From positions 1 through 58,844 of IMG/VR virus record IMGVR_UViG_3300031463_000546: a stretch of DNA of 58,844 bases; one strand, given 5' to 3'. The notes beneath the pieces were generated by a model, which was not told the DNA's origin, did no database searches, and saw nothing but the letters and a program-made list of their open reading frames with translations. This document shows positions 5,901-42,306 of this stretch, in pieces. The DNA comes from a virus (taxonomy: Duplodnaviria; Caudoviricetes). Position 1 is the stretch's first letter, and each line of letters starts with the position of its first letter. Made by a program: the position numbers and the translations under genes.

Positions 5901-6718
5901 GCTTCCAGGATGGGGATGATACCGAGCATATGTCCCTGGGCATCGGTGAAGGTCAGCCCCAGTTCCTGCCCGGCCTTGCCGACCTTTTGCACGAAGTACT
6001 TATACAGCGTGCCTGCTTCCGCCCCTGGCATGGTCGTCTGCATCTGGCCGAGGATCGCGAGTTGCTCTTCCAACGGGACGTTCGCGGATGCGGCGATGGC
6101 GCCGATATTGCGGATGGCTTCCGCCATCTGTGCCCCGTTCGTTTTGAAGGCCGCCACGGTCTGCGCCATGCCGCCGGAGAACATCCTCGCCCAGTCCATG
6201 TCCGTCATGTCTTTGGCCAGCGGCTTGTAGATGCCATAGCCGGTGGTGAAGGCGCTGACCATTTCCGCGACACTGGCCTTCGTCGCCGATGCAGTCAACG
6301 CGGCCGCCGCGGTGAAGTCGCCGACCGCGGCATCGGAGAGATTGGCCAGTGCGCCTTTGACTTCATAACAAGTGCCGATGAATTCGCCTTTCGTCGCCCC
6401 CGACCACTGGTTGGTGAAGCGCTCGGCGGCAGCGGCGATGGCATCCAGGTCTTTCACGCCCTCGGATTTCAACCCGGCCAACCCGCTTTGCGTCGCCATG
6501 GTCGCGGCGACCAGTCCGGATGGAATGGCTATCATCGCCACGCCGGCCCCCATGAGCGTCGCGCCTTGCTGGATCAACTCCATGTTGTGCGAGATGCGTT
6601 GACTCGATGCGGCGATGGTGGCATCCAGCGATTGCATGGACGACTGCACACGGCCCGCATTTTGCGAGAACGCATCCTTCATGGAGACGAGGATACCGAG
6701 GCCGAGATCCTCCATCAT
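2984..6718 (-). CDS. Tail tape measure protein
   Basis: ~1240 aa, Ala/Gly-rich, TP901-type core (GAEAGT), Trp-periodic repeats, hydrophobic segments, VTLDGREIA end; start placed at ATG 6718 overlapping upstream TGA. Confidence 0.93.
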   Translation of the reverse strand: MMEDLGLGILVSMKDAFSQNAGRVQSSMQSLDATIAASSQRISHNMELIQQGATLMGAGVAMIAIPSGLVAATMATQSGLAGLKSEGVKDLDAIAAAAERFTNQWSGATKGEFIGTCYEVKGALANLSDAAVGDFTAAAALTASATKASVAEMVSAFTTGYGIYKPLAKDMTDMDWARMFSGGMAQTVAAFKTNGAQMAEAIRNIGAIAASANVPLEEQLAILGQMQTTMPGAEAGTLYKYFVQKVGKAGQELGLTFTDAQGHMLGIIPILEAIKRKFPDLASVTTQMQLQKAFGSEESIRFLTQMMQGMDTLKVNIDGVRQAMQGGTAVTEEMARAMTSDIGSGLKLATQQMKNLAEIAGNTMLPVFAPLLQGVQFVVLRLQDWARAHPGLVRGILAATLGLGALLLVVGGSIAAIGSLGLLIPAIQTGLATIGPILAGAMGAVSTSLLPAMLIIAGVIVAVWLLRQAWITNFAGIRDVVMTAWTNIKAVFLGLSQLISSFNGETGTMSASIAAQLQRSGLFNFVVTVFQVYARVRAFLVGLWQGFSSFFGKIRAIIEPSVSALVHAFVGLFTALGRVFGIVQSVKVEVAGTTGSWRTFGQVVGGVLGFIGQVIVMVLSGVVWVITGIVQVVRGLVMAFGWLREGMTVVSNVFVRHWGTIATVVKWAAIVLGTIFGPALIQTGIQATIAGARIISNFVMGLQMAGSISLVRTITQLQTIVSTSWSNFIGGITSAWQAIRMATVSTAQYAVAAWRAVGVLVAQGAQWVALQARTVAANAALLIQRGIMLAGAAATWIATAATTAFGMAMTIATGPIGLICLAIAALIGIGILVWKNWDHIKAFLLGCWHGLKHTAVSVFTGVVSFLKTWGPTILAVVAGPLGWIALAVYKNWDRIKGFLGAVWGWIKSAGSAIWDGVKAGASTIGNWCSTAWNGIKSGASQAWDGIKSGVSSYVNFHATNLELAKSIASNAWNTIANGHGSLWDRCKAASSMAVSQISAQYPWLGHAMQTVGATIVGVWASIRGVASSTWASIKGWAVSAWDGVKNAGSGAFQHITSGLANLLPNALDAGKKLMSTLADGIRSAVSAPFEALKAGLGKLGKLLPHSDAELGPLSTLSQSGFSVLDTMSRGIAKASHLPALAMQQAFAFGNNLPSVIPPTLAPVTAGTPVVRPITPVPIRPLQQSASTQSASEPMRDLLELIASKLDALGGQTPGDMVVTLDGREIARAVYRDMQERRIRNYDNR

Positions 6719-8379
6719 GCGGAGCCTCCCCGGTACTCTTCCCAGACGGCGCCGGGGGATTGGCCCAGCCACGGCTGCAGGTTCAACCCAGCCATCAGCC
6801 GGTCGCTCACGCTCACGGGGAGGGTCAGCAGGCGTGTCGCCCCGTCGTCATCGACCGCGGTGAAGCGTAAGGTGTAATCACCAGGCACGGCATAGGCGTG
6901 TGCCAGGGGATCGCCACTGGCATATCCGGTCGTCGTCGTCCCATCACCCCAGTCCAGTTGCAGGTTGGTAACCGCTCCGTCTGCATCATCTGCCAGCGCC
7001 AATACCGAGAGCTGGCAACCAGCCTCCGGTCGGGCATAGAGGGTGCAGGTGGGCGCCTCGTTCTCGACGATGATTTCCGCCTGGTGCTGGGCGCTGGCCC
7101 CTTCGGAGTCCGTCACCTCGACGGTCAGCCAGTATCGCCCATGGGTCGGGTAGGTGTAGCTCGCTTCCTGCCCGAGCACCCCGGCACGCCAGCCGGCGCC
7201 ATTGCCGGGGAGATACCGCCAACTCACAATGGCCGTGTCGTCGGACGAGGAGGACGCATTGATGTGGAGCGTGCGGTGATCGGCATCGACACGGGTGGTG
7301 AACGCACACGTCGGTGACTGATTCGGCGCAATCACCACCTGGGTGATTGCACTGTCGGTCATCGTCCCCTCACAGTCCGTCACCCGCGCAAATACGTTGA
7401 AGGTGCCGCCGGTGGCCGCATAGGTATGCGAAGACGGCAGACCAGGACCACAGTGAGAGGTGACCGGACCATCCGTGCGTCCTTCCCAGTAGATGCACAA
7501 ATCCGTGAATGATACCCCGTCGCCCTCGCTGACCAGCGGGGTGATCGTGACCGTGCGCCGGTTGATCGTGACGTCGGTCAGGGAACAGATCGGCGGAATC
7601 TTTGCGGCGATGACCACGTTGGCCGGTGTTGCCGGCTGTGCCAATCCCTCGTTATCCGTCGCCGTGGCCTGGATGGTGAAGGTGCCACCGGTGCTCGGAT
7701 AGGTGTGGGTATATCCCTGCCCGCTGACGCAGCCGCTCGTTTGCGGACTGCCATCACCCCAGGTGATGACCAGGGTGCTGATCGTGCCATCGGGATCGCT
7801 GGCCACCGGTGTAGCAGTCACCGTGCGATGATCGATACTGGTGGTCAGCGAACATGTCGGTGGACGATTCACCGCATAGGCCTGGGAGGCGACCCCGCTG
7901 GTGGTGAACCCGGTTTTCAACGCGATGACTTTGACCGTGGTATCCGCCTGCAGCGACAGTGATCCCGACAGGATCGCTGACGTGCCATTGGGCGTCGAGC
8001 CATCGGTGGTATACCGTAATGTCACCCCGGTCGTCGCACAGGATACCGTGACGGTGAGTGGTGCCGCATACGTGCTGCCGGTATATGGCGCTGATCCGGT
8101 CCCGAAGGTCGGTGTGGCACATAGTAGCGTATAGACCGCGGTGGCGACACCCGAATTGGTGTAGCTGGCTTTTTCCGCCATCGCCTTCACGGTGGTCGTA
8201 GCGGTGATATTTAACGGGCTGCTGTAGACAGGCGACCCGACCGTTGGGGTCGAGCCATCGGTGGTATAGTGAATGGTGGCGCCGGACGTCGCACAACTCA
8301 ACGACAGACTGAAGCTATTGTTATACGTGCCGGCAACGGTGCCGAAGGTCGGGTCGGCCACCACGGGCGGTGAACACAT
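6715..8379 (-). CDS. Ig-like repeat protein: 2 chitobiase/Fn3-associated domains + about 4 PKD domains
   Basis: Two YTTDGSTP motifs; WGDG...HTY...G.f...TD.eG repeats; GAGGAG RBS. Confidence 0.8.
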   Translation of the reverse strand: MCSPPVVADPTFGTVAGTYNNSFSLSLSCATSGATIHYTTDGSTPTVGSPVYSSPLNITATTTVKAMAEKASYTNSGVATAVYTLLCATPTFGTGSAPYTGSTYAAPLTVTVSCATTGVTLRYTTDGSTPNGTSAILSGSLSLQADTTVKVIALKTGFTTSGVASQAYAVNRPPTCSLTTSIDHRTVTATPVASDPDGTISTLVITWGDGSPQTSGCVSGQGYTHTYPSTGGTFTIQATATDNEGLAQPATPANVVIAAKIPPICSLTDVTINRRTVTITPLVSEGDGVSFTDLCIYWEGRTDGPVTSHCGPGLPSSHTYAATGGTFNVFARVTDCEGTMTDSAITQVVIAPNQSPTCAFTTRVDADHRTLHINASSSSDDTAIVSWRYLPGNGAGWRAGVLGQEASYTYPTHGRYWLTVEVTDSEGASAQHQAEIIVENEAPTCTLYARPEAGCQLSVLALADDADGAVTNLQLDWGDGTTTTGYASGDPLAHAYAVPGDYTLRFTAVDDDGATRLLTLPVSVSDRLMAGLNLQPWLGQSPGAVWEEYRGGSA

Positions 8380-29235: not shown

Positions 29236-30708
29236 ATGGCCAAATCACGATACCGCACATCGCAGCAGACGACCGGCGCAGTGGCGCAGCCGTTGCCCCA
29301 CGCGAGCGCCGCCACCATCGACGGCTCAGCGTTCATCAGTGTCACGCCCACCGATCCGATCCCGGTCACCTGGGAAGAGCGCGCACGACGAGCGTGGACC
29401 TACTATATCGAGGAGCCACTGGTGAAGAACTGCGTCAACTCCTGGCGCTCCTTTGCCGTGGGCGACGAGATCAAGCTGGCCAGCGATGATGAGGTAGTGA
29501 AGGAGGCGGTGAACGAATTGCACGACCGGCTGGCGCTCTCCACCTTCGTCAAGGATATGATCCTGCAATTGCTGGTGAAAGGCGACGCGGTCGGCTTCAA
29601 ACGTTACCGCCAGGATGGGCGCGATGTCGAGGGGATCACCTGCGTCAATCCCACCTCGGTGAAAGTGAAGTATGCGCAAGGCACGCTGATGGAGATGCAA
29701 CAGTACCCGGAGGACGCGCCTGCCGCCGGCGACGGCCTGTCGCTGCCCGTCGAACAGGTGATCCATCTGCGCTGGGATGCGCCGCCGTTCTCTCCGCGAG
29801 GCAATAGCCTGGTGCTGCCCGCCTTCCAGTCCATCGAACTGCTGCGCGATTACCGCAAGGCCGAGCAGGCCATCGCCAAACGCTGGGCCACGCCATTCCG
29901 CCTCATCAAGGTCGGCGGGGCCTACAACCAGCGCGTGATTACCCCTGACCAGAAGATGCTTCAGGACATCCGCGACATGGTCAACAAGATGGACATGAAG
30001 TCGGGCCTGGTGGTGCCGTTCTACGTGGGGGTGGAGACGCATGGCGCCGAGGGAACCGTGCTCAATGTCGAGGAGAAGGTGAAGGAAGTCAAGGAGGACA
30101 TCATCGTCGCGCTGGGGTTGTCCCGCTCGCTGGTGACCGGCGATGGCCCGAATTATGCCACGGCGTCCGTCTCCATGCAGAAGATGCTGGTGATGATTCG
30201 TGAGATCAAACAAATCGCCCGGCAGCTCCTCGACTGGGTGGTGGATGACTGGCTCGCGCTCAGCGGCCATGAGGATGCCACCGTCCAGTATCTCTTCAAC
30301 GATCTCGATCCGAACGACGCGGTCGATATCAAGAAGCTGTTGCTCGAACTCTACGACCGCAAGCTCATCTCCCGCGCCAGCCTGCAGGTGAAGATGGAAC
30401 TGGACCCGGATGTCGAGGCGGCCAACCGCGCGCAGGAGAAGCCGGGCATCGACGTGCTGGACGAGAAGCAGGCGAAGCCTATCGTCGATATGGTCACGCT
30501 CGGTGTGCTCGACGTGGATGAAGCGCGGAGTTTTCTGGGGCTGGGGCCGAAGGCGACCACGCCGGAGACAGCCTCCGCGCGTGCTGTTGCCGATGACGTC
30601 ATCTGTGACGAGTGCCGGCATTTCGAGGACGCGGAAAATCGCTGCGCGGTGCAGCGGCAGGAGACCACCTTCGAGACGCGCGCCTGCCGGTTCTTCGACC
30701 GGAAGTAA
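29236..30708 (+). CDS. Portal protein
   Basis: Position after TerL, ~490 aa; VIHLR...PRG.S; NYATA; Cys-rich C-tail. Confidence 0.85.
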   Translation: MAKSRYRTSQQTTGAVAQPLPHASAATIDGSAFISVTPTDPIPVTWEERARRAWTYYIEEPLVKNCVNSWRSFAVGDEIKLASDDEVVKEAVNELHDRLALSTFVKDMILQLLVKGDAVGFKRYRQDGRDVEGITCVNPTSVKVKYAQGTLMEMQQYPEDAPAAGDGLSLPVEQVIHLRWDAPPFSPRGNSLVLPAFQSIELLRDYRKAEQAIAKRWATPFRLIKVGGAYNQRVITPDQKMLQDIRDMVNKMDMKSGLVVPFYVGVETHGAEGTVLNVEEKVKEVKEDIIVALGLSRSLVTGDGPNYATASVSMQKMLVMIREIKQIARQLLDWVVDDWLALSGHEDATVQYLFNDLDPNDAVDIKKLLLELYDRKLISRASLQVKMELDPDVEAANRAQEKPGIDVLDEKQAKPIVDMVTLGVLDVDEARSFLGLGPKATTPETASARAVADDVICDECRHFEDAENRCAVQRQETTFETRACRFFDRK

Positions 30709-30719
30709 GGGGCGAATCC

Positions 30720-33700
30720 ATGCCGGTCGAAACCACATCACAACACGACCTGATTCGCCAGGCCGTCGCGCAGAGCCTGCATGCGCGGAATCGCTATGTC
30801 GAACAGGTCGTGAACGATCTCACCGATGAGCTGGTTTCCGCACGCGAGCAGGTGGCCGCGGCGATCCTGCGCTACAAATCCCTCGGCTCTCTGCCGGACA
30901 ACAAGCTGGCAGGATTGAAGGGACTGGAACGGCTGGACACTGACATCAAAGGCATCATGACCCAGCTCAAGCGGTCACAGACCGTCCGTTGTCGCACGGA
31001 GGCGAAAGCCGCTTTCCGGCTCGGGGTGTACCACGGCATCGAGGAATTCGCCACCGCGCAACTACCGGTGTATCGTGACCTCACCGCTGATGGGCTGGAC
31101 AAGCTCACCACCAAAGCCTTCCAGATCGTCGATACCGATGCGCTGGACTTTCTGGCGAACTACACCACCACGCTGGTCGGTGACGTGAACCGGGAGACGA
31201 CCGATGGCATCATGCGGACCATCCGCGGCGCCATCGCCACCGGCAAAGGGGTGGATGACATCGTACGCGACCTCGGTGAGGTGGTGAAGGATCAGGAGTC
31301 CTTCCGCCATGCCGGGACAAAAGTGTTCAGCAAGGCGCAGTATCGCATGGAGGTGATTGCCCGCACCGAGGTGCTGCGCGCGCATAACCTGGGCAAACTC
31401 AAATTCCACCAGGCGGTCGGCATCCAGCAGTTGGAGTGGTTCACCATGGATGACGAGCGCATGTGCCCCATCTGCCGAGATCTGGACGGAAAGCCTTTTC
31501 CCATCGACGAATTCCCCGCGCAACCGGCGCATCCCCAATGCCGGTGCGGACATTATCCAGTCTGGCCGTTGGTGATCTGCGGACAAGGCGTGCTGGCAGC
31601 GAGTGCCGCTCCGAAGACCGGCGACGCCTGTATCCTGCCGCCGCAGAGTATCGAGGGGATGGCCGCGGCCCAGGCCGAGGAGCAGAAGACCCTCAAAGCG
31701 GCGTTCGAAGGTGGCGACCCCGCGAAGCTTGGTGCGCTCACCATGAAGCAGGTACAGACACTGGCCAAGCAGCAGGGAGTCGCCATCGCGCGCACCAAGG
31801 CAGATTTCCTCAAGCTGCTCGCGGATAAAGGGGTGGATGGCAGTGGGCTGTCGGGGAAGGCGCTGGAGGCGATGCTCAAGCAGTATGGCATCGGCGCGCT
31901 CCGCAGCAAGGATGAATTGGTCGCGCTGCTGGTGCAGAAACAAGCGGCGTTTATCCAGGCCCAACTCCAGGCGCAACTGTTGAAGGAGGCGGCGCAGTCG
32001 GCTACCGGGCTTGAGTCGATGACGGTGAAAGATCTGCAGGATCTGGCCGTAAAGAAGGGTCTCTCGCTGAACATGACCAAAGCCGACGTCATCGCCTTGC
32101 TCGATCAGTTGGAACCGGGCGTCGATCACAGTGGATTATCCGGGCAGGCACTAATCACTGCAAAGAAACAGTTCCATATCGGCCCACTCAAAAACAAGGC
32201 GCAGCTCATTAAGGCGCTTCAGCAGGTGGCCGGCAAGGAGATGGCACAGCAAGCTATACAGGATACCCAGCAGGCGGCAGTGACGGCAGCGACCAACGCG
32301 TTGAAAGAGGCTGCCGGAAAAGTCATACTCCCGGCGACTCCGAGCAATTTTGCACCGTTCCTTGAACAACTTGCTGCCGCTGAACAGGCGCTGGTCAACA
32401 GCCCCACCGTGCCGCAGGAGGTGATCCAGCAGATCGCCACCGAGCTCTCCGCGAAGAAGCTGGCGTTCCAGCAGCAGGTACTATCCCTTGGCGCTTCAGA
32501 CGTGAAAAAGATCGCGCAGGCGGCAAAAATTCCGAAATACCAGTGGGCGACCAAAGACGAACTCGTCACGCTGATGACCGAAACCTCGCCGGCGAAGCTC
32601 GATCCGGTGAAGCAATCCATCGCCGACAAATGGGCCAAGTGGAACACCCAGCAGCAGGCGCACAAGGTTGGGAAAGTCACCGCACAGGCGCAACTGGAAG
32701 CCCAGCAAGCCGCGGAAGCCGCCGCCGCCAAGGCGAAATCCCTCCTGCAGGACAAAGTCGATGCCGTGATGCATCCCGGCGCTGCCGGGGAATCGCTCGA
32801 TGCCTATGTCACGGCGATGCAGGAATTGAAATCAGCACTCGCGGCACAGGCCGGCATACTCTCGCCGGATGATCTGGCGCACTACTCCGGTGTCACGCAG
32901 GTGTTGCATGGCTGGGGCATCTCCCACTTACAGGAGATGAAAGTTGCCGATCTAAAGAAGCTGGCGCAGGCGAAGAAATTTCCGAATTGGGCCTTTGCCA
33001 ATAAGGACCAGCTTGTGACGCTGCTGTCGGCGTCGGATGAATCAGCCAAGCAGGATGTGTTGCAGGCGCTGGCCACCAAGGTTGCCGGGTATGGGAAAGC
33101 GACGCCTTCCCTGAAATCCGGTAAAGCGCTGGCGGCAGAGTTGGCCACACCCGATACGCCAACGATTCAAATTGGCACGTCCGCTTATGCTCAGGTGGAT
33201 GCGCAGTGGACGAATATCGCCGTCCATCCCGACCGCCATTTTACCTTCGCGCGTGACGCCAAAGATCTGGGTGGCGTTCATCCGAAGCAGATCTATCGTG
33301 ATCCGGATGGTCACGAATGGCTCTTTAAGCCCATTGAGAAGGCGTCGGATGGCTTCCTCGCTGATGCCGATGAGATGACATACCGTGTCTCTCGCCTGCT
33401 CGATCCCAACGCCATCGAGGTGCGCAAGGTGACGTTGAACGGGCAACGCGGCACCATCCAGCGCATGAAGTCAGGATTGCAGGCTCAGAAAAATTATGAC
33501 GGCATGGACCCGGCGTCGATCCCCCCGGAGGAACTGGCGCAACTGCTCCGGCACCATGTCGTGGACTGGTTGCTCTCCAATCATGATAGCCACAGCGCGA
33601 ATTTCCTGCGGCTCACCGATGGCTCGGTGGTGGCCATCGACCGCGCGCAGGCGTTCAAATACTTCGGACGGGATAAGCTGGACATCGGCTATAACCCGAA

Positions 33701-35804
33701 CAACCTGCCGGAGCATCCCACCACACTCTACAATGCCATCTTCGGGCAAGTGAAAAAGAAGAAGCTGATCGTCGATCCGATGCACACATTGGCGGCAATC
33801 GAACGCGTTGAAGCCATCGATGATGCCGAGTACCTGGCACTCTTACGGCCGTATGCCCAGGGACGACCGGAGGGGACCGAGGCGTTCCTGCAGGCGGCAT
33901 TGGAACGGAAGCATGCGCTCCGTGCCGACTTCGAAGGGTTCTATCAAGGCGTCCTGGGTGATAAAACCTTCAGCTTTGAGCAGTTGGTAAAGGCGCGGGC
34001 TAAGCAAACCACCACGGTACTCTCCAAAGAACTGGAAGACGCGGTGAGCACCATCGTGGAGAAAGAATCGTGGCAAGGGGTCGTGATTCCGTTCGACCGC
34101 GACATGGTGGAAGATGTGCAACTCCATCTGTTCACCGAGCGTGTGCCGGGGCGCCGTGGGAAGGTGGATCACCGCACCGTCTATCGGCTGAAGCTGCGTC
34201 CGGACAAACAGCAGCGTATGCTCGATGCCATCGAGATGGTTCAGAAAGGGGAGAGCGGTCTCCCGCGAGCTGGTGATCCCCTGATCGATGACGTGTATTA
34301 CACCCGCATCCTGAATGGCGTGCGCACGGTCAATGCCCATCTGGAACGCGGAGGGAAATTCAACACGTCAAAACTCGATCCGGCCCTTGCGTGTGAAGCG
34401 GAACTACGCACGCTGCTCAATGCTGACCGGATCGAAGTGCGGGACATGGCAGCGCATTACCTGAAGACCATCGATGAGTTGACCATCTTCGCGCGTGGCG
34501 GCGCCACCCCCTCGGGGCGCGTCTCGCAGTTCGAAATGTTCCGCGTGCTGCCCGGGCGCGTGAGTGTGCCAAAGATGACCGGGCCGACGTTCCGTGTAAC
34601 GGAAGGCATCGTGCAGTTCGACCAGCGAATGTGTGTCGAGGGGCATATCGAACTGAAAGCCACCGATAAACGTGTCGGACAACTGTTCAAAGGCAATCTG
34701 CCGAAAACCGGCAAGCAATACACGCTGGAGTATGACGACGGCACGAAGATTCGCGTGCGCCCCTTTGCTACTGACCATTACGACGAGCACTATATTCAGC
34801 CGGGGCAAAACTATTATGCCATCTCCGGCGATATCGAAATCATCGTGCCGGGGAAAGGCACGCCGGAACAGGTGGAGCAGACCTTTGAGAAGCTGCGTCA
34901 ACTCGGCCTGCCCGCGGAAGTGGCGCCCCCCGAATACCAGGAATACCTGTATCTGCACCAGGTGGCGGTCGCCAATAATTTGCATACTTCGGATGTCGGC
35001 TACCAGCAGATGATGCGCCAACTGGAGGCACGGAATGCGCCGATCAGTGAGCGGGTCGAGGAAATGGTGGCGTATTGGAACACACGCCTCAAGGTGAAGG
35101 ATGTGCGGAAGCTGGCCCGGTATAATCCTGCCGGCGAGTATCAGCTCGATACGAGCGAGCGGCGAAAGGGAAACATGGTCGGATATCGGCGCACCTTTCG
35201 TTTCGACCTCGATGTCGAGAAAGAGATGCGCGGGTATAACTTGATCCACCAGGTCGTCGGCGGTGCGGCGGATGAGTATGTGAAGATGGTCGACCTGGCG
35301 CTCTCGCATAACGGATCGCTGCTCTCCACCACGGAGAAGCTACGCATCGGAGTACCGCCGGGGGGCATGTCGCCGGAAGCGGATATGGGTTCCGGTGGGG
35401 CGAATTATGTCTTTACCCGCTGGCGACCCGATCCCCGCGGCGCCAAGTCGTTCCGCGAGATGGGCTTCTACTTGAGGCCCGGTGTGGTGCAGCGCACGGA
35501 CACCATCGTATATGCCACCGACCATTACGGACGGTGTTACGGGAAATTCGTCGAGACGCACCGGGAGACGTCGCCGGCGCGGTGGAAGCGCATTGCCGAG
35601 ACCAGCCGGAATAACGAAACGATCATCAAGCAGAACGTGACGCTGCTTGACAATCTCGACTGTATCGTGTTGGATTCAGCCAGCGCCAAGCAACAGATGA
35701 TCGCCATATTCCAGAAGCATGGCGTGACCGCGTTGCCGGACGGACGGAAGATCGAAGAGATCATTCACATCATCCCCGGCGCGAGGAGAGGATATACGGG
35801 ATGA
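30720..35804 (+). CDS. MuF minor head protein fused to HeH repeats, HipA/PI3-4K-like kinase and ART-like domain (polymorphic toxin-like)
   Basis: IARTE, D.R.CPIC..LDG, PAHPQCRC (MuF); six LxxMTVxxL..K.EL-type repeats; LGGVH..WLFKP..DWLLSNHDSH..N..IDRAQAF; LIH..LLS..GGANYVFTR. Confidence 0.88.
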   Translation: MPVETTSQHDLIRQAVAQSLHARNRYVEQVVNDLTDELVSAREQVAAAILRYKSLGSLPDNKLAGLKGLERLDTDIKGIMTQLKRSQTVRCRTEAKAAFRLGVYHGIEEFATAQLPVYRDLTADGLDKLTTKAFQIVDTDALDFLANYTTTLVGDVNRETTDGIMRTIRGAIATGKGVDDIVRDLGEVVKDQESFRHAGTKVFSKAQYRMEVIARTEVLRAHNLGKLKFHQAVGIQQLEWFTMDDERMCPICRDLDGKPFPIDEFPAQPAHPQCRCGHYPVWPLVICGQGVLAASAAPKTGDACILPPQSIEGMAAAQAEEQKTLKAAFEGGDPAKLGALTMKQVQTLAKQQGVAIARTKADFLKLLADKGVDGSGLSGKALEAMLKQYGIGALRSKDELVALLVQKQAAFIQAQLQAQLLKEAAQSATGLESMTVKDLQDLAVKKGLSLNMTKADVIALLDQLEPGVDHSGLSGQALITAKKQFHIGPLKNKAQLIKALQQVAGKEMAQQAIQDTQQAAVTAATNALKEAAGKVILPATPSNFAPFLEQLAAAEQALVNSPTVPQEVIQQIATELSAKKLAFQQQVLSLGASDVKKIAQAAKIPKYQWATKDELVTLMTETSPAKLDPVKQSIADKWAKWNTQQQAHKVGKVTAQAQLEAQQAAEAAAAKAKSLLQDKVDAVMHPGAAGESLDAYVTAMQELKSALAAQAGILSPDDLAHYSGVTQVLHGWGISHLQEMKVADLKKLAQAKKFPNWAFANKDQLVTLLSASDESAKQDVLQALATKVAGYGKATPSLKSGKALAAELATPDTPTIQIGTSAYAQVDAQWTNIAVHPDRHFTFARDAKDLGGVHPKQIYRDPDGHEWLFKPIEKASDGFLADADEMTYRVSRLLDPNAIEVRKVTLNGQRGTIQRMKSGLQAQKNYDGMDPASIPPEELAQLLRHHVVDWLLSNHDSHSANFLRLTDGSVVAIDRAQAFKYFGRDKLDIGYNPNNLPEHPTTLYNAIFGQVKKKKLIVDPMHTLAAIERVEAIDDAEYLALLRPYAQGRPEGTEAFLQAALERKHALRADFEGFYQGVLGDKTFSFEQLVKARAKQTTTVLSKELEDAVSTIVEKESWQGVVIPFDRDMVEDVQLHLFTERVPGRRGKVDHRTVYRLKLRPDKQQRMLDAIEMVQKGESGLPRAGDPLIDDVYYTRILNGVRTVNAHLERGGKFNTSKLDPALACEAELRTLLNADRIEVRDMAAHYLKTIDELTIFARGGATPSGRVSQFEMFRVLPGRVSVPKMTGPTFRVTEGIVQFDQRMCVEGHIELKATDKRVGQLFKGNLPKTGKQYTLEYDDGTKIRVRPFATDHYDEHYIQPGQNYYAISGDIEIIVPGKGTPEQVEQTFEKLRQLGLPAEVAPPEYQEYLYLHQVAVANNLHTSDVGYQQMMRQLEARNAPISERVEEMVAYWNTRLKVKDVRKLARYNPAGEYQLDTSERRKGNMVGYRRTFRFDLDVEKEMRGYNLIHQVVGGAADEYVKMVDLALSHNGSLLSTTEKLRIGVPPGGMSPEADMGSGGANYVFTRWRPDPRGAKSFREMGFYLRPGVVQRTDTIVYATDHYGRCYGKFVETHRETSPARWKRIAETSRNNETIIKQNVTLLDNLDCIVLDSASAKQQMIAIFQKHGVTALPDGRKIEEIIHIIPGARRGYTG

Positions 35805-36277
35805 AACCGATTGCGCCTACGGATACCGACAAGCCGATGGAAACGCTCATCGCGTGCATCGAGGAACTCAACGCCGGTGGCTCGGACGGTAAACTCGTCT
35901 GGTCGGATGGCTTTGCCATATCACTCGGCGTCATCGTGCGTGTTGAGATCAAAATGGTCGATGATCCACGCTACTTCTTCCTCGCCCATGCCGTCCTCGG
36001 TTTCGAAGAGGGTGGTGAGCACCATGGCGGCGTCCATGTGCATAAGATCGTCAACTGGTATGCCGATGATCCGCCACTCGAATTTGCGGTGATCGATACC
36101 GAGGGACGCACATTGGAGTTCTGGCTGATTGAACCGAGCTGCCAACCAGAAGAGGCTCAAGCATATGCGGCATGGCGTGAACAGATGGATCGCCAATCCG
36201 AGATGCGTGATGCCGCCTATACGCGAATGCGTGAAGCGTTGGAAAGTATGGCGCGTGAGTGGCCGGAGGATTACTAA
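35801..36277 (+). CDS. Acidic hypothetical protein, candidate immunity 1
   Basis: ATGA-coupled to MuF gene; small, acidic. Confidence 0.6.
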   Translation: MKPIAPTDTDKPMETLIACIEELNAGGSDGKLVWSDGFAISLGVIVRVEIKMVDDPRYFFLAHAVLGFEEGGEHHGGVHVHKIVNWYADDPPLEFAVIDTEGRTLEFWLIEPSCQPEEAQAYAAWREQMDRQSEMRDAAYTRMREALESMAREWPEDY

Positions 36278-36279
36278 GC

Positions 36280-36648
36280 ATGAAAGTGGAGTATTACATC
36301 GAGTATGCGCTCAAGCACGATTCGACTGATAGGTATTACTACAAGCCCATCGGCGTCTGGGCACATGGCCTGGGGGGAGGCTTGAACGTGTATGGCCTAT
36401 ATCTTCCCGAGGAAACCGAAGCCCAGGAACGTGCTGATTGGATCATCAACGATCTGGTCGAGCAGGAGGTGGTGACGCTCCCGGAGGATTGGCTTCGGCG
36501 AAAAGCCGCGAGCATTGGACTCTACCAGGGAGATGTTTCTCCGATCTACTTCACCGAGGGATTACACGCAGATGATGTGGCGGAACGCGTGCTGGCGTTG
36601 ATTATGGCTGGGGGGCCGATTGGCGATCCACCGTTGCCTTCCGCATAA
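36280..36648 (+). CDS. Acidic hypothetical protein, candidate immunity 2
   Basis: GGAGG RBS; directly follows previous gene. Confidence 0.6.
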   Translation: MKVEYYIEYALKHDSTDRYYYKPIGVWAHGLGGGLNVYGLYLPEETEAQERADWIINDLVEQEVVTLPEDWLRRKAASIGLYQGDVSPIYFTEGLHADDVAERVLALIMAGGPIGDPPLPSA

Positions 36649-36888
36649 TGCCATCGTCTGTTGGTATAACCGCGATAGAGGTAGCAACCTACTCAGTGAT
36701 ATCCCCGAGTCAATCGGCATAAATGACAATTTGTAGAGAGCTACCTCTTAGTCACTATACAGGATTTAGTACTGGCGATATAATTCCGATGTCTTTGGGC
36801 AGCAACGCCCTACGCAAAATTGAGGCACTCGGCTGGTCCAGACATCGGTAATAAGATATCGCACTACATGGTGAAGGAGGCAATTTTT

Positions 36889-37350
36889 ATGAGTAGGGTA
36901 ACCGCTCTGAAGTTCACAACGCGAGGCTTCAGCGTTGTCACGCTCGAGGGGACACGAACAACCCCCACTTGTGTTACTAATAAGGCGTTACTCTATCCTA
37001 CTAGCCATGATACATCGAGACTGATGGACTGGTGTGAAACCCAATTCAATCTGCTAATTGACCAGGAAATCCCTGACAGAGTCGCTTATAAGTTGGTAAC
37101 CTCCCTATCAGCACACGACCAAATATTCCACGTCTACTACGCACTAGGCGTGCTCCACCTTGTTTGTCATAAAAAAGAATTGGAGATCCAGCACGTTACT
37201 CCGTCTAGCTTATCTGCCAGATGTTTCGGCCTTCAACAAGGCACTGACATGGACAGCTATATTGCCTCGTTATTCACTGGTCGCCCGTCTCCTTGGAATA
37301 GTGAGATTCGGGAAACAGCTTTAATTGCCTTGTCGAGGTTAGGACGATGA
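36889..37350 (+). CDS. RuvC/RNase H-fold-like protein, acidic catalytic residues apparently lost
   Basis: LIDQEIPDRVAYK...ALGVLHL...IQHVTPSSL mirrors RuvC layout; AAGGAGG RBS; AT-richer. Confidence 0.55.
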   Translation: MSRVTALKFTTRGFSVVTLEGTRTTPTCVTNKALLYPTSHDTSRLMDWCETQFNLLIDQEIPDRVAYKLVTSLSAHDQIFHVYYALGVLHLVCHKKELEIQHVTPSSLSARCFGLQQGTDMDSYIASLFTGRPSPWNSEIRETALIALSRLGR

Positions 37351-38360
37351 CTTCAGGCTACACAGATATCGGAAAATACCAAAGAATTGAGAGACTAGGT
37401 GGTGGTTATTTCGGCGATGTTTATAGGGTATATGATCGCGCGTTAGATACCCAGAGAGCGCTTAAAGTAATCCCGGAAGATCCAAGCCATCCTCGGGATA
37501 TTGAATTATGGGAGGCACAGCTCCTAGAAGTATGCAAACACAAACACATCGTTGAAGTAAAGGAAGCAGATCTTGCAGACGTTGATGGAATTCCCAGCGT
37601 TATCATTGCATGCGAATTGATGCCAAGAGGATCTGTCGATGACCTGTTAGAGAATAACTTTATATCGGTATATTCGTCTGCTGATATTATTACTCAAGCA
37701 CTGTTCGGTTTAGCGCACTTACACGCAGCAGGAATCTTACACTGCGACTTAAAACCAGGGAATTTACTGATTGGCGATAGTGGAGTGATAAAATTATCTG
37801 ATTTCGGGTTGGCTGTTTCGTGTGGTGACACACCAGACCATTTTTACACTATGCATAAAGCTCCCGAATTAATTCTCGGTGAGGCTCCATCCGAACTGAC
37901 CGATGTTTATGCAGCCGGAGTCACCTTATTTCGCTTACTGAATGGTGTTTATGATATCGCAGCTATACTACCCACGAACTTTAATGAGGCAATTACTCGT
38001 GGCCGTTTCCCTGATAGGTCAGCTTACTTGCCACATATACCTGAAAGAGTAAAACGCATATGCAATCGAGCAATGCATATAGATAAGACAAAACGGTTTC
38101 AGAGTGCAGATGGGTTTCGCCAAGCACTCGAGGGACTCCCATGGAGTATTGACTGGCATAAGATCAGTGACACTGAATGGCATGGAATAAAATCCGACGT
38201 GCAATATACTATAGAGGTATTTGAAAAGCGTACTGGATGGTGCCTTGATTTCAAACGTAATAATAGACGAATTATTGATTATTGCGGATCAAGGTTACCG
38301 TCTGAGATGGACGCTGTTTCTGCTTTGTATGAGATGATACGCACTACAACATTGAGTTAG
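37347..38360 (+). CDS. Hanks-type Ser/Thr protein kinase
   Basis: LGGGYFGDVY, ALK, HCDLKPGN, DFG, APE, DVYAAG. Confidence 0.95.
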   Translation: MTSGYTDIGKYQRIERLGGGYFGDVYRVYDRALDTQRALKVIPEDPSHPRDIELWEAQLLEVCKHKHIVEVKEADLADVDGIPSVIIACELMPRGSVDDLLENNFISVYSSADIITQALFGLAHLHAAGILHCDLKPGNLLIGDSGVIKLSDFGLAVSCGDTPDHFYTMHKAPELILGEAPSELTDVYAAGVTLFRLLNGVYDIAAILPTNFNEAITRGRFPDRSAYLPHIPERVKRICNRAMHIDKTKRFQSADGFRQALEGLPWSIDWHKISDTEWHGIKSDVQYTIEVFEKRTGWCLDFKRNNRRIIDYCGSRLPSEMDAVSALYEMIRTTTLS

Positions 38361-38580
38361 GTATCCACCATTGAAGGATCATTATGGCGATTAACATTCC
38401 TGTCAATTTGTAACTGAATAACACTGCCAACATGTTTGCTTCTGTACCGTATGACCATGCACCAATTCAACTTGTGTATTTCCCTCCTGCCTAATTAGCC
38501 ACGTCACTTTCCACAACGTTTACGTATGTAAGCCAGCGCATGTAAGCGCTCTCCCAGCATCTATTCTCAAGGTATTTCTG

Positions 38581-38730
38581 ATACATGTCTTTGCCACCGA
38601 CCGAGAGCGCCTGGCCTTTCTGTTCGTATATTACGACCGCCTCTGGTCCGAGGAAGATGCGGTCGATATCACGCTGCTAGCAGAAGAGCTACAAGTGATC
38701 GAGGAAAAATTCTTCCCTAGCATTTCGTAA
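38581..38730 (+). pseudogene. Degenerate copy of the 5' end of the MTase-protease gene
   Basis: IHVFATDRERLAFL...AVDITLLAEEL vs MHTFATDLDRIVFL...SVDITTEEL; begins ATA rather than ATG. Confidence 0.6.
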
Positions 38731-38796
38731 TATTTGCTGCCTCAAACGTATGAGGGTGCATGTAGGGGTGTTTACACCCCGCCAGAGATCACTCAC

Positions 38797-41700
38797 ATGC
38801 ACACCTTCGCTACCGACCTGGATCGTATAGTCTTCCTCCTGGAAGCCGATGCCGACCTGCATGGCTTCCTCGGCCTGACCGCCGAGGGAGCCACACAGGA
38901 GCCGTCGGTTGACATCACCACCGAGGAACTCCCCGAGGGTGAACGTCCGAAGTACATCACCAACTACATCGGGAGCAAGCAGAAACTCGTCGAGTGGATC
39001 TGGAAGCATACCCCGGATGGCATCGCCTCGGTGCTCGATGGGTTCAGCGGGTCGAGTGTGGTCGCCTATATGTACAAGACCAAGGGGCTGCGAGTGGTCG
39101 CCAATGACCGGCTGCGCTACGCCTATCACGCCGCGCGGGCCATCGTTGAGAATGATGACACCCGCATCAGCAGCGAGGAACTGAACACGCTCCTGCAGCC
39201 CAACGCGAAAGCCGCCACCTTTGTGCAGGACAACTTCAAAGGGTTGTTCTTCGCCAACGGCGTGCATGCGATCATCGACCAGGTGCGCGCCAATATCGAC
39301 GCGGTCTCCGGTTACAAAAAAGACATTGCCCTCTTCGCCCTCGGTAAAACGTGCATGTCCGGCAAGGGGGGATTCGGACACTTCTCCAGCAGCACCGATT
39401 ACGGCAAACGGCAGGATACCCCGGATGAATTCAAACAGCGCTTCGCCAAAAACGTCGCCCGCATCAACGCACTGGTATTCAGCAACGGCAAAGACTGCAA
39501 GGCGAACCAGAAAGACATCAACGCCCTGCTACCCGAGGTGAAGGTCGATCTCGCGTATTTCGATCCACCGTATGCTACCGAGTTCAGCACCACCAATTAC
39601 GAGAAATCCTACCATTTCGTCGAAGGGTTGATGAGCTACTGGGATGGGTTGGAGATCAAAGCTGATACAAAGACGCATCACTACGTCACCGATCACCAGA
39701 CGGTGACCAAGGCAAATGCCAATGCTTTCTTCGCTGAGTTCCTGGCCAATGCCAAGCAGATCCCGCATTGGCTGATTTCCTATCGGGATCATGCCTATCC
39801 GAACGAAACGGAGATGCGTCAGATCATCGCCGACACCGGCAAGGATGTCAGCCTGCGCTCGCACGACCATCATTATTCGATCTCCTCGCGGCATGGCGAT
39901 GCGTCCGATGCCAAGGAGTACCTGTTCATCTGTGCGCATGATACCGGCGCGAAGGCTAAGGCTGATGAAGAAGCGGGGGATTTCGAAACGTCCGGGGAGT
40001 TGGATCATCTGGAACTCCTTACCTGCATGGCGGGTAAAGACGATGACCCTGTGCGGGTCACCGGCTACATGGGCTCTAAGTACGTCATGCTTGGGTGGAT
40101 CGCCCGGCAAGTACCGAAGGAGGCGAAGTCCATTCTCGATGCCTTCAGTGGCGGGGCGAATGTCGCCTACCACTTCAAACGCCAGGGGCTGAAGGTGGTC
40201 GCCAACGACCTGCTGCGCTATCCCTATCACCTGGCGCGCGCGGTGGTCGAGAACAGCCATGAAACGCTCACCGATGACGATATCGAGCGCATCCTCGCGC
40301 CGAATGCCGATGCCGGGGATTTCATCGTGCGCACCTTCCACGGTTACTACTATTCGAAGCCGGTGCTGGCGTGGCTAGACCAGGTATGGGCGAACATCCA
40401 GAAACTGCCCGGCTACAAGAAAGACCTGGCGCTGGCGACCCTCGGCACCACGGTGAAGGCGAAATCCGCTTTCGGACAGTTCAACCGTTCGAAGAAAAAT
40501 TCGAAAGCCTCGCTGGATGCTGACGCTGGTCTGTCCAATTCCCAATTGACCAATGTGCCAGTCTCCGAGTTCGTGGCGACCTTTCGCAAAACCGCCAAAC
40601 GGCTCAACAGCCTGGTATTCGATAACAGCCAGGAGTGTAAAGCGACGAATCTCGATGCGGTCGAGGCCGTGCAGAAAGTTGGCGCCGATGTGCTCTATCT
40701 CGATCCGCCGTATGTCACCGAGTTCAATCGGAACGATTACGAGAACGATCTGCATTTCGTTGAAGGTTTGATGACCCGCTGGGCCGACAAGGAGATTCTC
40801 GACAACGGGCGTCGGAGCTATCCGTCGCGCACCACCTTCACACGGGAGTCGATGCAGGAGTTGATGGCGTCGCTGGCGCGCGAGTCGCGCGGCAAGTATG
40901 ACACGGTGCTCCTCTCCTATCGCGATAAAGCCTTCCCCGCTGAAGCGGACATCCAGCGCATCTTCGCCGAACACTACGGACTGGTACGCCGGAAAGCCAT
41001 GGAGGTGGAGTACAACATGGCGCGCACCTATGGCGCCGGCGGTCAATTCGCAAAAGAACTGCTCTTCGTCTCCTCGAAGCCGCGCCAGGCGGCGAAGACG
41101 GCGCAGGCCGATCACCGCCCGGCCAATTGCCATACCAGCGTGCCCGTGGACATTCATCTCTCGACGGAAGGCCAGGCAACAACACCCGGGTCGGGTGATC
41201 CACGTTTCACTTGCATCCTCTGCCGGGTCGGCACGAACAAGAACGGCGACCACTTCCTCGCTGAAGAGCTGGCTAGCCGCTACGTGACTGCCGTCAACAA
41301 AAAAGTCGACCTGCAGCACTCGCAGGATGTCACCGATATCGTCGGCGGCATTGTCGGCTCGGATTACATCGAAGATGACGCCGGGGGCCGGGTCGAGTGC
41401 GTCGGCGAGTTGTATGTCCAAGATGCGCCCAATGCGCAGTTGGCCTACCGGCTGATGAAGTCCGGCATCATCGCACAGGTCTCGATGGAGTGCGATTACA
41501 CCGAAGGCGAATGCTCGGTCTGCGGGAAGCGGGCGCAATCGAAAAACGATTACTGCCTGCATCTGCGTAAGTACAAAGGCGGCGACTTCCAGGGTCAGCC
41601 CGTCTATGAAATTCTGCATGGCGTGACGTTCACCGGTCTCGGTCTGCTCGACCGCAAAGGGGCCGACGAAAATGCACGCATCACCCAGGTGGCCTCGCAG

Positions 41701-42306
41701 GGGGCCGACATCCCGGAAGGAGACACAATGGACGAACCGATCCGCGACGCGGCTGACAGCGAGGCCGCCAAAAAATCCACGCCGCCCGCGGGAGGCGGCA
41801 CACCGCCGGCAGATCCTGCCGCACAACTCAAGGCGCTGGAGCAGGAGAACAAGCAACTGAAGCAACAGGTTGTTGATCTGCAAAAGCAAGTCGACGAACT
41901 GCTGGCCGCACAGAAAGCCGCCGCCAATCGTGCCAAAGCCCAGGCGCTGGTGCGCAAGCTGGAACGCCAGGGGCTGAAGTTCGGCACCGACGAGGAGAAG
42001 GATGTCGAAATCGGTCGGTTGGCTGGCCTCTCCGATGAGGCATTTGCCGCCAGCGAAGCCGCTTATGGTCGTATGGCACAGGCCATGCCCGGCAAAACGG
42101 ATGCCAGTGATAAGACCAGTCAGGCCGACAAAGCCGATTGTGCTTGCGACAAGAGTAAAGCCACCGAGCAGATCACCCCGCCGTTGAAAACGGATGCCGG
42201 GGTGCGCCCGCTGGACGTCGATGACCGGAATGACTCGCTGGAAGAGCAACTGAAACGTGGCTTCCAGCAAGCGTATGACGAGCGCATCGCCCGCGTACAG
42301 AGTTAA
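38797..42306 (+). CDS. Tandem N6-adenine DNA methyltransferases fused to prohead protease and scaffold
   Basis: YIGSK/DGFSGS/DPPY and YMGSK/DAFSGG/DPPY; then NKNGD.F, DLQH, VSMEC..CSVC, GAD..A.I; coiled-coil tail; lies immediately before decoration and capsid genes. Confidence 0.88.
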   Translation: MHTFATDLDRIVFLLEADADLHGFLGLTAEGATQEPSVDITTEELPEGERPKYITNYIGSKQKLVEWIWKHTPDGIASVLDGFSGSSVVAYMYKTKGLRVVANDRLRYAYHAARAIVENDDTRISSEELNTLLQPNAKAATFVQDNFKGLFFANGVHAIIDQVRANIDAVSGYKKDIALFALGKTCMSGKGGFGHFSSSTDYGKRQDTPDEFKQRFAKNVARINALVFSNGKDCKANQKDINALLPEVKVDLAYFDPPYATEFSTTNYEKSYHFVEGLMSYWDGLEIKADTKTHHYVTDHQTVTKANANAFFAEFLANAKQIPHWLISYRDHAYPNETEMRQIIADTGKDVSLRSHDHHYSISSRHGDASDAKEYLFICAHDTGAKAKADEEAGDFETSGELDHLELLTCMAGKDDDPVRVTGYMGSKYVMLGWIARQVPKEAKSILDAFSGGANVAYHFKRQGLKVVANDLLRYPYHLARAVVENSHETLTDDDIERILAPNADAGDFIVRTFHGYYYSKPVLAWLDQVWANIQKLPGYKKDLALATLGTTVKAKSAFGQFNRSKKNSKASLDADAGLSNSQLTNVPVSEFVATFRKTAKRLNSLVFDNSQECKATNLDAVEAVQKVGADVLYLDPPYVTEFNRNDYENDLHFVEGLMTRWADKEILDNGRRSYPSRTTFTRESMQELMASLARESRGKYDTVLLSYRDKAFPAEADIQRIFAEHYGLVRRKAMEVEYNMARTYGAGGQFAKELLFVSSKPRQAAKTAQADHRPANCHTSVPVDIHLSTEGQATTPGSGDPRFTCILCRVGTNKNGDHFLAEELASRYVTAVNKKVDLQHSQDVTDIVGGIVGSDYIEDDAGGRVECVGELYVQDAPNAQLAYRLMKSGIIAQVSMECDYTEGECSVCGKRAQSKNDYCLHLRKYKGGDFQGQPVYEILHGVTFTGLGLLDRKGADENARITQVASQGADIPEGDTMDEPIRDAADSEAAKKSTPPAGGGTPPADPAAQLKALEQENKQLKQQVVDLQKQVDELLAAQKAAANRAKAQALVRKLERQGLKFGTDEEKDVEIGRLAGLSDEAFAASEAAYGRMAQAMPGKTDASDKTSQADKADCACDKSKATEQITPPLKTDAGVRPLDVDDRNDSLEEQLKRGFQQAYDERIARVQS
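41728..42306 (+). CDS. Nested in-frame scaffolding protein (internal start)
   Basis: AAGGAG RBS then ATG 41728 in frame; coiled coil LKALEQENKQLKQQV. Confidence 0.65.
   Translation: MDEPIRDAADSEAAKKSTPPAGGGTPPADPAAQLKALEQENKQLKQQVVDLQKQVDELLAAQKAAANRAKAQALVRKLERQGLKFGTDEEKDVEIGRLAGLSDEAFAASEAAYGRMAQAMPGKTDASDKTSQADKADCACDKSKATEQITPPLKTDAGVRPLDVDDRNDSLEEQLKRGFQQAYDERIARVQS

Follow-up and report, generated by a model that had tools for sequence, protein, structure and literature searches.

The provirus record IMGVR_UViG_3300031463_000546 of IMG/VR comprises 58,844 bases (the whole of this stretch is called the window below), and within it a 2.1-kb stretch of foreign composition sits between two conserved phage genes. 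This island carries two genes, here called gene A and gene B, and it raises the question of what a small protein with the layout of the Holliday-junction resolvase RuvC and a Hanks-type protein kinase are doing together in a prophage. Our answer is that the island is probably a horizontally acquired moron that combines a RuvC-derived pseudo-enzyme with a kinase of the type of Stk from phage 933W, and that its most likely service is to protect the lysogen by abortive infection. This answer draws on the residues of the two proteins, the linkage of their genes elsewhere, their relation to the 933W stk locus, and the genomic settings in which such pairs are found.

The guanine-plus-cytosine (GC) profile drops to 0.41-0.49 at about positions 36600-38800, compared with 0.55-0.64 in the flanks, and the GC content of the island (36649-38733, plus strand) is 0.447 versus 0.592 for the whole window. 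GC content at third codon positions is 0.50 in gene A and 0.36 in the kinase gene, versus 0.73 in the flanking MuF-like gene and 0.74 in the methyltransferase gene. The island is bounded by p129 (36259-36648, 129 aa) and by a methyltransferase fusion gene (38734-42306), and it opens with a 240-nt leader (36649-36888, plus strand) that holds a sigma-70-like site and the ribosome-binding site AAGGAGG (36874-36880). Gene A (36889-37350, plus strand) encodes a 153-aa protein and gene B (37347-38360, plus strand) a 337-aa protein; the TGA stop of the former and the ATG of the latter share the letters ATGA, a 4-nt overlap at 37347-37350. A first-pass annotation, made from the letters of this DNA alone, had described an island AT-richer than its flanks with its own intergenic leader and an ATGA-coupled pair of genes, and each of these features was recovered here. 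Although the open reading frame (ORF) of gene A spans 36820-37350, the 153-aa form begins at the ATG at 36889, which lies 8 nt past AAGGAGG, and 57 aligned homologues begin within a few residues of this methionine. One promoter-like site is found in the leader (36756-36784; TATACA-17-TATAAT, a 10/12 consensus match), and the region as a whole contains three such sites, which is not above the number in shuffled sequences (mean 4.5). The leader also contains inverted repeats at 36677-36692/36733-36748 and 36781-36794/36840-36853. Rfam produced no match anywhere in the island, and no convincing terminator was found in the AT-rich, non-coding tail of 373 nt (38361-38733), which has no plus-strand ORF of at least 40 aa.

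Relatives of the gene A protein are hard to reach by simple searches. A word-indexed homologue search returned only the protein itself, and tblastn against 159 kinase loci (described below) and against plasmids returned nothing. An exhaustive HMMER search of a representative library found 88 relatives at E ≤ 1e-3, nearly all of them 145-160 aa long, and a family profile was built from 57 of these 88 representatives. By itself, the gene A protein scores under the cut-offs of the RuvC models of Pfam (PF02075; E 0.11, 12.8 bits, gathering cut-off 22.2) and NCBIfam (E 0.014, 15.3 bits, cut-off 163). The family profile, by comparison, aligns over its full length (positions 1-150) with Deinococcus radiodurans RuvC (7w8d; E 1.3e-9), and less strongly with the RuvC proteins of Thermus thermophilus and Escherichia coli. 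An AlphaFold2 model of the protein, made with the family alignment, has a predicted local distance difference test (pLDDT) score of 95.3. When this model was compared with the PDB using Foldseek, the top-ranked matches were twelve RuvC chains (E 3e-11 to 1e-7; template-modelling (TM) scores 0.71-0.81), the best of them from D. radiodurans, T. thermophilus, E. coli and Pseudomonas aeruginosa (E 3e-11 to 5e-8, TM 0.74-0.81); for chain 7w8d_B the values are E 3.2e-11 and TM 0.77/0.80. Phage RuvC-like resolvases likewise rank first in a structure search of BFVD.

The fold is therefore that of RuvC, and the active site is not. The 7w8d alignment places A-L-K-F-T of gene A at the GIDPG of RuvC and the lysine of A-Y-K at the catalytic glutamate, in agreement with the first-pass annotation, which had read ALKFT and AYK at these positions and had called the protein catalytically degenerate. 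As a reference, 32 genuine RuvC segments from the searched genomes were aligned to the family profile, and only aligned residues were counted. The four catalytic columns of these segments read D in 29/29, E in 30/31, D in 28/31 and D in 29/29. Across the 57-member family, column 1 is N in 22 and K in 11, with no D and three E (K8 in the window protein), and column 2 is R in 28 and K in 23, with neither D nor E (K68 in the window protein). Columns 3 and 4 are mixed, and the window protein has E139 and E142 there. The degeneracy noticed in one protein thus extends to the family. In place of the tetrad, the family conserves two single residues, G21 and A147, and a P-x-W-[DN] motif (W136 in 52/57), which forms the start of the last helix beside the former active site. 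From sequence and model, we conclude that gene A very probably encodes a RuvC-derived pseudo-enzyme and not a resolvase. The fold survives in it while the tetrad that binds metal is gone, so that cleavage of DNA is not expected, and the basic residues at two carboxylate sites, together with the conserved tryptophan motif, show that the old active-site region is under selection. The family profile found no family member in 401 Actinomycetota genomes (a tally that takes in the unpublished genomes G323, G179 and G087, on which no other result here depends); 134/401 had one weak match each, of at most 47.7 bits, which is the level at which genuine RuvC scores.

Gene B, judged by its residues, encodes a catalytically intact Hanks kinase. 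Residues 11-253 match Pfam Pkinase (PF00069) with 121.8 bits (E 4.4e-35, cut-off 31.7), and the serine-threonine kinase family phrog_2361 matches at 6e-45. G18, G20, K40, E56, H132, D134, K136, N139, D152, F153 and G154 are invariant in 33 kinase relatives of 332-360 aa. The catalytic loop reads HCD instead of HRD, and the DFG motif is present. About 80 further residues past the kinase core are conserved in the same relatives, with W270 and W278 invariant and G280 and R307 nearly so. The complete set of Hanks motifs and the short C-terminal domain that had been read from the sequence are therefore both features of the wider kinase family.

The C-terminal domain (residues 256-337; 38112-38357, plus strand) folds in prediction as a four-strand beta-meander followed by a helix, with a pLDDT of 84.5 when modelled alone with 20 sequences by AlphaFold2. 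In an alignment of 20 such domains from three subfamilies, namely those of the window type, of the type found in restriction-modification (R-M) operons and of the 933W type, W270 is invariant and W278 nearly so. The domain has no Pfam family, no Foldseek match in the PDB at E ≤ 0.001 and no meaningful PDB sequence match, and an Atlas search with it returned same-kind kinases only. We regard the meander-plus-helix domain as the signature of a superfamily of Stk-type kinases. The best structure matches given by the VIA tool are to nucleic-acid-end-binding modules, namely the N-domain of the African swine fever virus ligase (Z 6.0) and the WGR domains of PARP1 and PARP3 (Z 5.0-5.4, within the range that the tool calls common). 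These matches are middling and serve as a lead only; the Pfam WGR model matches 0/20 of the C-terminal domain members.

Whether the kinase belongs to a named defence family was addressed with PADLOC 2.0, in which mad6 (7.5e-45) and PD-T4-6 (PDLC04042; 2.5e-39) match it over residues 1-264 only, that is, over the kinase core. Four other kinases of such pairs score alike on the PD-T4-6 models (about 97-137 bits). Membership in MADS Mad6 (NF047741) was rejected at 111.2 bits versus an NCBIfam cut-off of 460, and membership in the PknB/Stk1 families was rejected because NCBIfam scores fall far under the cut-offs.

Linkage of the two genes was assessed in 159 Hanks-kinase loci (80 genomic and 79 viral; L002-L160), which had been fetched with a generic kinase pattern; in the genomic scan this pattern was HRDIKPGN, and the kinases returned were mostly unrelated. 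The RuvC-like partner is present in 4/159 (L002, L082, L083 and L089), each time directly upstream of the kinase, and the C-terminal domain is present in the same four loci; none of the other 155 carries either the domain or the partner. The four positive loci helped to build two of the profiles, and the informative part of this comparison is therefore the 155 negatives. A metagenome scan with a family-specific alignment of the kinase N-lobe yielded one locus (L193), in which a 152-aa partner (164 bits) overlaps a 332-aa kinase by 4 nt. Among 401 Bacteroidota genomes, the partner profile at E ≤ 1e-13 had one match (181 bits), in a low-GC chromosomal islet where the gene of a 335-aa kinase starts after a gap of 2 nt. 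In this islet, the pair is followed by an ORF of 238 aa with a still lower GC content of 0.31 (L270, 9238-9954).

Six annotated kinase matches were also examined, and in five an upstream 'hypothetical protein' of 152-167 aa fits the partner profile. These five pairs reside on two alphaproteobacterial plasmids (Methylocystis parvus pMpar-1 and Novosphingobium pHR1a), a Bacillus plasmid, Bacillus phage SPbetaL7 and the Shiga toxin 1 (Stx1) phage AU6Stx1. The sixth kinase (H4) is longer, belongs to a type VI secretion cluster and lacks a partner; a PpkA-like role in type VI secretion was rejected, since the sole such match examined is without a partner. When viral contigs were scanned with the 933W-type partner, 67 loci were found, a redundant set in which 37/67 are 92-93% identical to the query, and in 63 the kinase is the partner's same-strand neighbor. 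Two of the remaining loci end at a contig edge and two have an apparently frameshifted kinase that matches from about profile position 100, so that the kinase lies downstream of the partner in 65/65 informative loci. A scan of viral contigs with the R-M-type partner returned only the two contigs known beforehand. Genes A and B are translationally coupled and co-inherited across phyla, and the first-pass annotation, which had asked whether the two genes are linked elsewhere and whether the 153-aa protein has an RNase H-like fold, is answered positively on both counts. A complex prediction for the kinase and its partner scored 0.00 in two runs made without controls, a result that weighs neither way on whether they bind. 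In three of the loci, a 54-62-aa ORF directly follows the kinase (Stx1 phage, L197 3487-3651; Bacillus plasmid, L195 7056-7244; SPbetaL7, L198 4068-4250), and it may be a third component of these subfamilies.

An experimentally studied relative, the kinase Stk of prophage 933W, is found in the immunity region of Stx phages; its trigger is reported to be HK97 gp41. The gene order in AU6Stx1 is cI, a 113-aa ORF, a 153-aa ORF, stk (with a 7-nt overlap), a 54-aa ORF and N. Partners of the 933W type form a family of 31 sequences, and the Joint Genome Institute annotates two of these as 'Holliday junction resolvasome RuvABC endonuclease subunit'. Using hhalign, the window partner family aligns with the 933W-type partners over 146 columns (probability 96.0%, E 4e-9) and with the R-M-type partner at similar strength (96.5%, E 9e-10). 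In the 933W-type partners, catalytic column 1 is R in 26/26 and column 2 is R in 31/31. As the 933W-type profile alone reached no RuvC in the PDB, this family is tied to RuvC through the window family. The window kinase is 28% identical to the 933W-type Stk over residues 20-303. Taken together, these comparisons indicate that both window genes are distant homologues of 933W stk and the ORF that precedes it.

Several features are shared by the two loci: both are prophage-borne, both have an upstream 153-aa ORF that overlaps the kinase gene, both kinases end in a C-terminal domain with the two spaced tryptophans, and both partners have basic residues at the first two RuvC carboxylates. They also differ. 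The window partner belongs to a distant subfamily, beyond the reach of direct search; the window pair occupies a cargo slot in the head-gene region, whereas the 933W pair lies in the immunity region; the window kinase has an HCD loop and an intact glycine loop, whereas the 933W-type kinase has HFD; and in the window no ORF of at least 40 aa follows the kinase, unlike in the Stx1 phage, the Bacillus plasmid and SPbetaL7. Passages of PMC3681748 describe 933W Stk as a tyrosine kinase of the eukaryote-like type, which HK97 infection activates, which has little activity without infection and which is involved in exclusion; parts of PMC6356687 treat it as well. In the literature that was searched, 933W Stk is handled as a single gene. 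The primary study is that of Friedman et al. in Molecular Microbiology (2011, 82:567).

The settings of the other pairs also point to defence. Type I R-M operons house the pair in four loci, with hsdS on one side and hsdR on the other (L083, L089, L194 at 5516-7053 and L199 at 4489-6029); these are two IMG/VR contigs, a Methylocystis plasmid and a Novosphingobium plasmid, and the genes there overlap or nearly abut. R-M-type partners begin MK[VI]LGFR[GS][DN]P, and the kinases of this type have HND and DYG in place of HRD and DFG. In both plasmid operons, a gene for a SprT-like protease comes after hsdR, and in the Methylocystis operon a GIY-YIG gene lies between hsdM and hsdS. The hsdS-hsdR slot is also the location of prrC.

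The insertion site in the window was compared with 37 related phage contigs (L271-L307), which share the order MuF-like gene, p158, p129 and methyltransferase. Neither gene A nor gene B occurs in any of the 37. In many of these relatives, the gap between p129 and the methyltransferase gene is 56-306 nt, and in 8/37 the junction contains other inserts, of 0.9-5.4 kb. By Pfam, the inserts encode AbiEi plus AbiEii (L275 and L279), AbiEi alone (L283), AbiEi and a PAS-SpoIIE phosphatase (L290), PemK/MazF (L276), a 1040-aa methylase like Eco57I/MmeI (L287) and DUF6088/AbiEi (L295); the insert of L273 has no Pfam match. On account of this content, we regard the slot as one that attracts cargo of the abortive-infection, toxin-antitoxin and R-M kinds, a hotspot for which the window cassette is one alternative filling. 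The candidate defence context that had been proposed for the island is therefore now carried by R-M operons, by the 933W immunity region and by a slot that receives AbiE, MazF and R-M cargo. A pattern scan found no relatives of p129, and a search of INPHARED found no close phage.

How might the cassette work? We infer both its defence role and its mechanism, and the following steps are proposed; the roles that the first-pass annotation gave to the two proteins, a pseudo-nuclease sensor of branched DNA or of a phage protein and a kinase effector, likewise stay proposals. In an uninfected cell, the kinase would be kept silent. Infection would be sensed through the pseudo-RuvC, the kinase C-terminal domain or both, acting as a sensor or a brake, and what is sensed might be a protein of the phage or else branched DNA from replication or recombination, which a RuvC-like dimer might still bind. 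The released kinase would then phosphorylate host proteins, phage proteins or both broadly, and growth would stop ahead of phage release, as reported for 933W Stk. A more specific version is possible but speculative: the pseudo-RuvC dimer may act as a structure-specific sensor of the Holliday junctions or forks of phage recombination-dependent replication, or may present a phage protein with a RuvC decoy, and may license the kinase through the C-terminal domain.

Several observations weigh against abortive infection by this cassette. No PADLOC 2.0 model matches the partner, and the PD-T4-6 models that match the kinase recognize a generic core and also match housekeeping PASTA kinases, a behavior described for Streptococcus thermophilus in part of PMC11514479. 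The window subfamily has no known phenotype, the experimental anchor, 933W Stk, shares only the 28% kinase identity given above, and the link between the window and 933W-type partners comes from profile-profile comparison only. The 933W-type loci that make up the largest linkage count are redundant. The median isoelectric point of the gene A family is 8.8 (mildly basic) and that of the 933W-type partners 6.35 (about neutral), so that DNA binding by the partner gains no support. Finally, the cassette lies within a late, structural region of the prophage, and its expression in the lysogen depends on a single consensus promoter match. Even with these points, a protective moron remains the reading that we favor.

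Of the alternatives, a toxin-antitoxin or addiction module fares best, and we hold it to be unlikely. The kinase would be the toxin and the pseudo-RuvC a putative antitoxin, and the pair would stabilize the element, with defence as a secondary effect; the proposal thus overlaps with abortive infection. It would account for a small upstream gene that overlaps the gene of a larger enzyme by 4 nt, for the type IV (AbiE) and type II (MazF/PemK) genes that fill the slot in related phages, and for the report, in part of PMC3681748, that 933W Stk is nearly inactive in uninfected cells. It fits poorly with gene A, in which Pfam and NCBIfam detect no helix-turn-helix, ribbon-helix-helix or other DNA-binding domain of the antitoxin type, and with the places that pairs occupy, among them type I R-M operons and the immunity region of 933W, for which exclusion is reported. 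HipBA offers a formal parallel, as its small upstream gene is coupled to a downstream kinase able to arrest growth. However, HipA falls outside the Hanks kinases and HipB is a helix-turn-helix repressor, and neither HipA nor HipB families were detected in the window pair by Pfam or NCBIfam.

Two further proposals are each less probable than an addiction module. The first assigns the pair the role of a guardian that keeps watch over an R-M or methyltransferase complex and is set off when the complex is blocked by an anti-restriction protein of a phage, in the manner of PrrC; in the window, the guarded complex would be the adjacent methyltransferase. A passage of PMC12707154 places prrC within a type IC R-M locus and presents its product as a guardian able to sense that restriction is inhibited. 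The pairs between hsdS and hsdR, and the position of the window pair directly upstream of the gene for the 1190-aa methyltransferase fusion, would suit such a role. However, the pairs of the Bacteroidota islet, the Bacillus plasmid, SPbetaL7 and the 933W immunity region have no R-M neighbor, and the window slot is a general cargo hotspot, so that the methyltransferase adjacency may be an accident. PrrC itself is an anticodon nuclease, unrelated to a kinase with a pseudo-RuvC; like PrrC and RloC, one clade of the pairs is found inside type I R-M loci, whereas the window copy lies outside any R-M operon.

The second, to which we give equally little weight, is a function that serves the phage, such as host takeover, lysogeny control or counter-defence by phosphorylation of host immunity proteins. 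The position of the cassette among late and structural genes and the many phage homologues (phrog_2361, SPbetaL7 and the Stx phages) would be expected of such a function; the occurrence of the pair outside phages, in a chromosomal islet and in plasmid-borne type I R-M operons, its absence from all 37 related phages, and a foreign composition and own leader that fit a moron would not. Last, that gene A is a working phage Holliday-junction resolvase whose adjacency to a kinase is accidental is scarcely credible, since for all its RuvC fold and profile similarity, and for all that RuvC-like resolvases are common in phages, it has lost the tetrad (K8 and K68 in the window protein, with the carboxylates of the first two columns all but absent from its 57 relatives), scores below the Pfam gathering cut-off and is strictly linked to one type of kinase.

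With a protective pseudo-RuvC and kinase cassette as the preferred reading, its relation to named systems can be stated. The first-pass annotation recognized no named system, and this holds insofar as PADLOC labels only the kinase core, as PD-T4-6-like or mad6-like, and has no model for the partner; it does not hold insofar as both genes are distant homologues of the 933W Stk pair. Gene A resembles RuvC in fold, length, order of secondary structure and profile-level sequence similarity, and it departs from RuvC in the absence of the D-E-D/H-D tetrad, in the new tryptophan motif and in its constant coupling to a kinase. Gene B shares its Hanks core with PD-T4-6, MADS Mad6 and staphylococcal Stk2, and abortive infection through a kinase, described for Stk2 in a passage of the review PMC13276650, is the logic proposed for it too. 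Kinase-mediated abortive infection by prophages (Stk) is a kind already known. Full-text literature searches found no paper that describes the window subfamily, the clade embedded in R-M operons, the C-terminal domain as a signature or the pseudo-RuvC as an obligate partner.

Few branches of bacterial immunity are as poorly understood as kinase-based abortive infection, which 933W Stk, Stk2 and PD-T4-6 represent. In the present data, an entire superfamily of kinases is invariably paired with a pseudo-enzyme derived from a resolvase and has a private C-terminal domain, which makes the partner and the domain concrete candidates for the sensor or the brake. The two together also provide a simple genomic signature that would separate defence kinases from the housekeeping Hanks kinases caught by PD-T4-6 models. 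Should the DNA-sensor or decoy version hold, an immune kinase of bacteria would be turned on by the structure of DNA or by a decoy; the long-known 'single-gene' Stk exclusion would then also become a two-component system that extends over four phyla or more and counts among its members a PrrC-like guardian clade, the one within type I R-M operons.

Some minor features of the island and its neighbors were also noted. A 12-nt direct repeat (11/12 identical) at 36724-36735 and 38401-38412, with its copies 1677 nt apart, flanks both genes and may mark the ends of an inserted cassette or be due to chance. Upstream, positions 30612-35804 encode a 1730-aa protein whose N-terminal third is a minor head protein like MuF and SPP1 gp7 (phrog_6577 and phrog_115); the rest of the protein, over 1000 residues, consists of repeats and unassigned domains. 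Downstream, the 1190-aa fusion (38734-42306) has two methyltransferase-like modules (phrog_56 and phrog_27806) and a C-terminal part that matches genes of Gordonia, Mycobacterium and Bacillus G phages, annotated as capsid maturation protease or as hypothetical.

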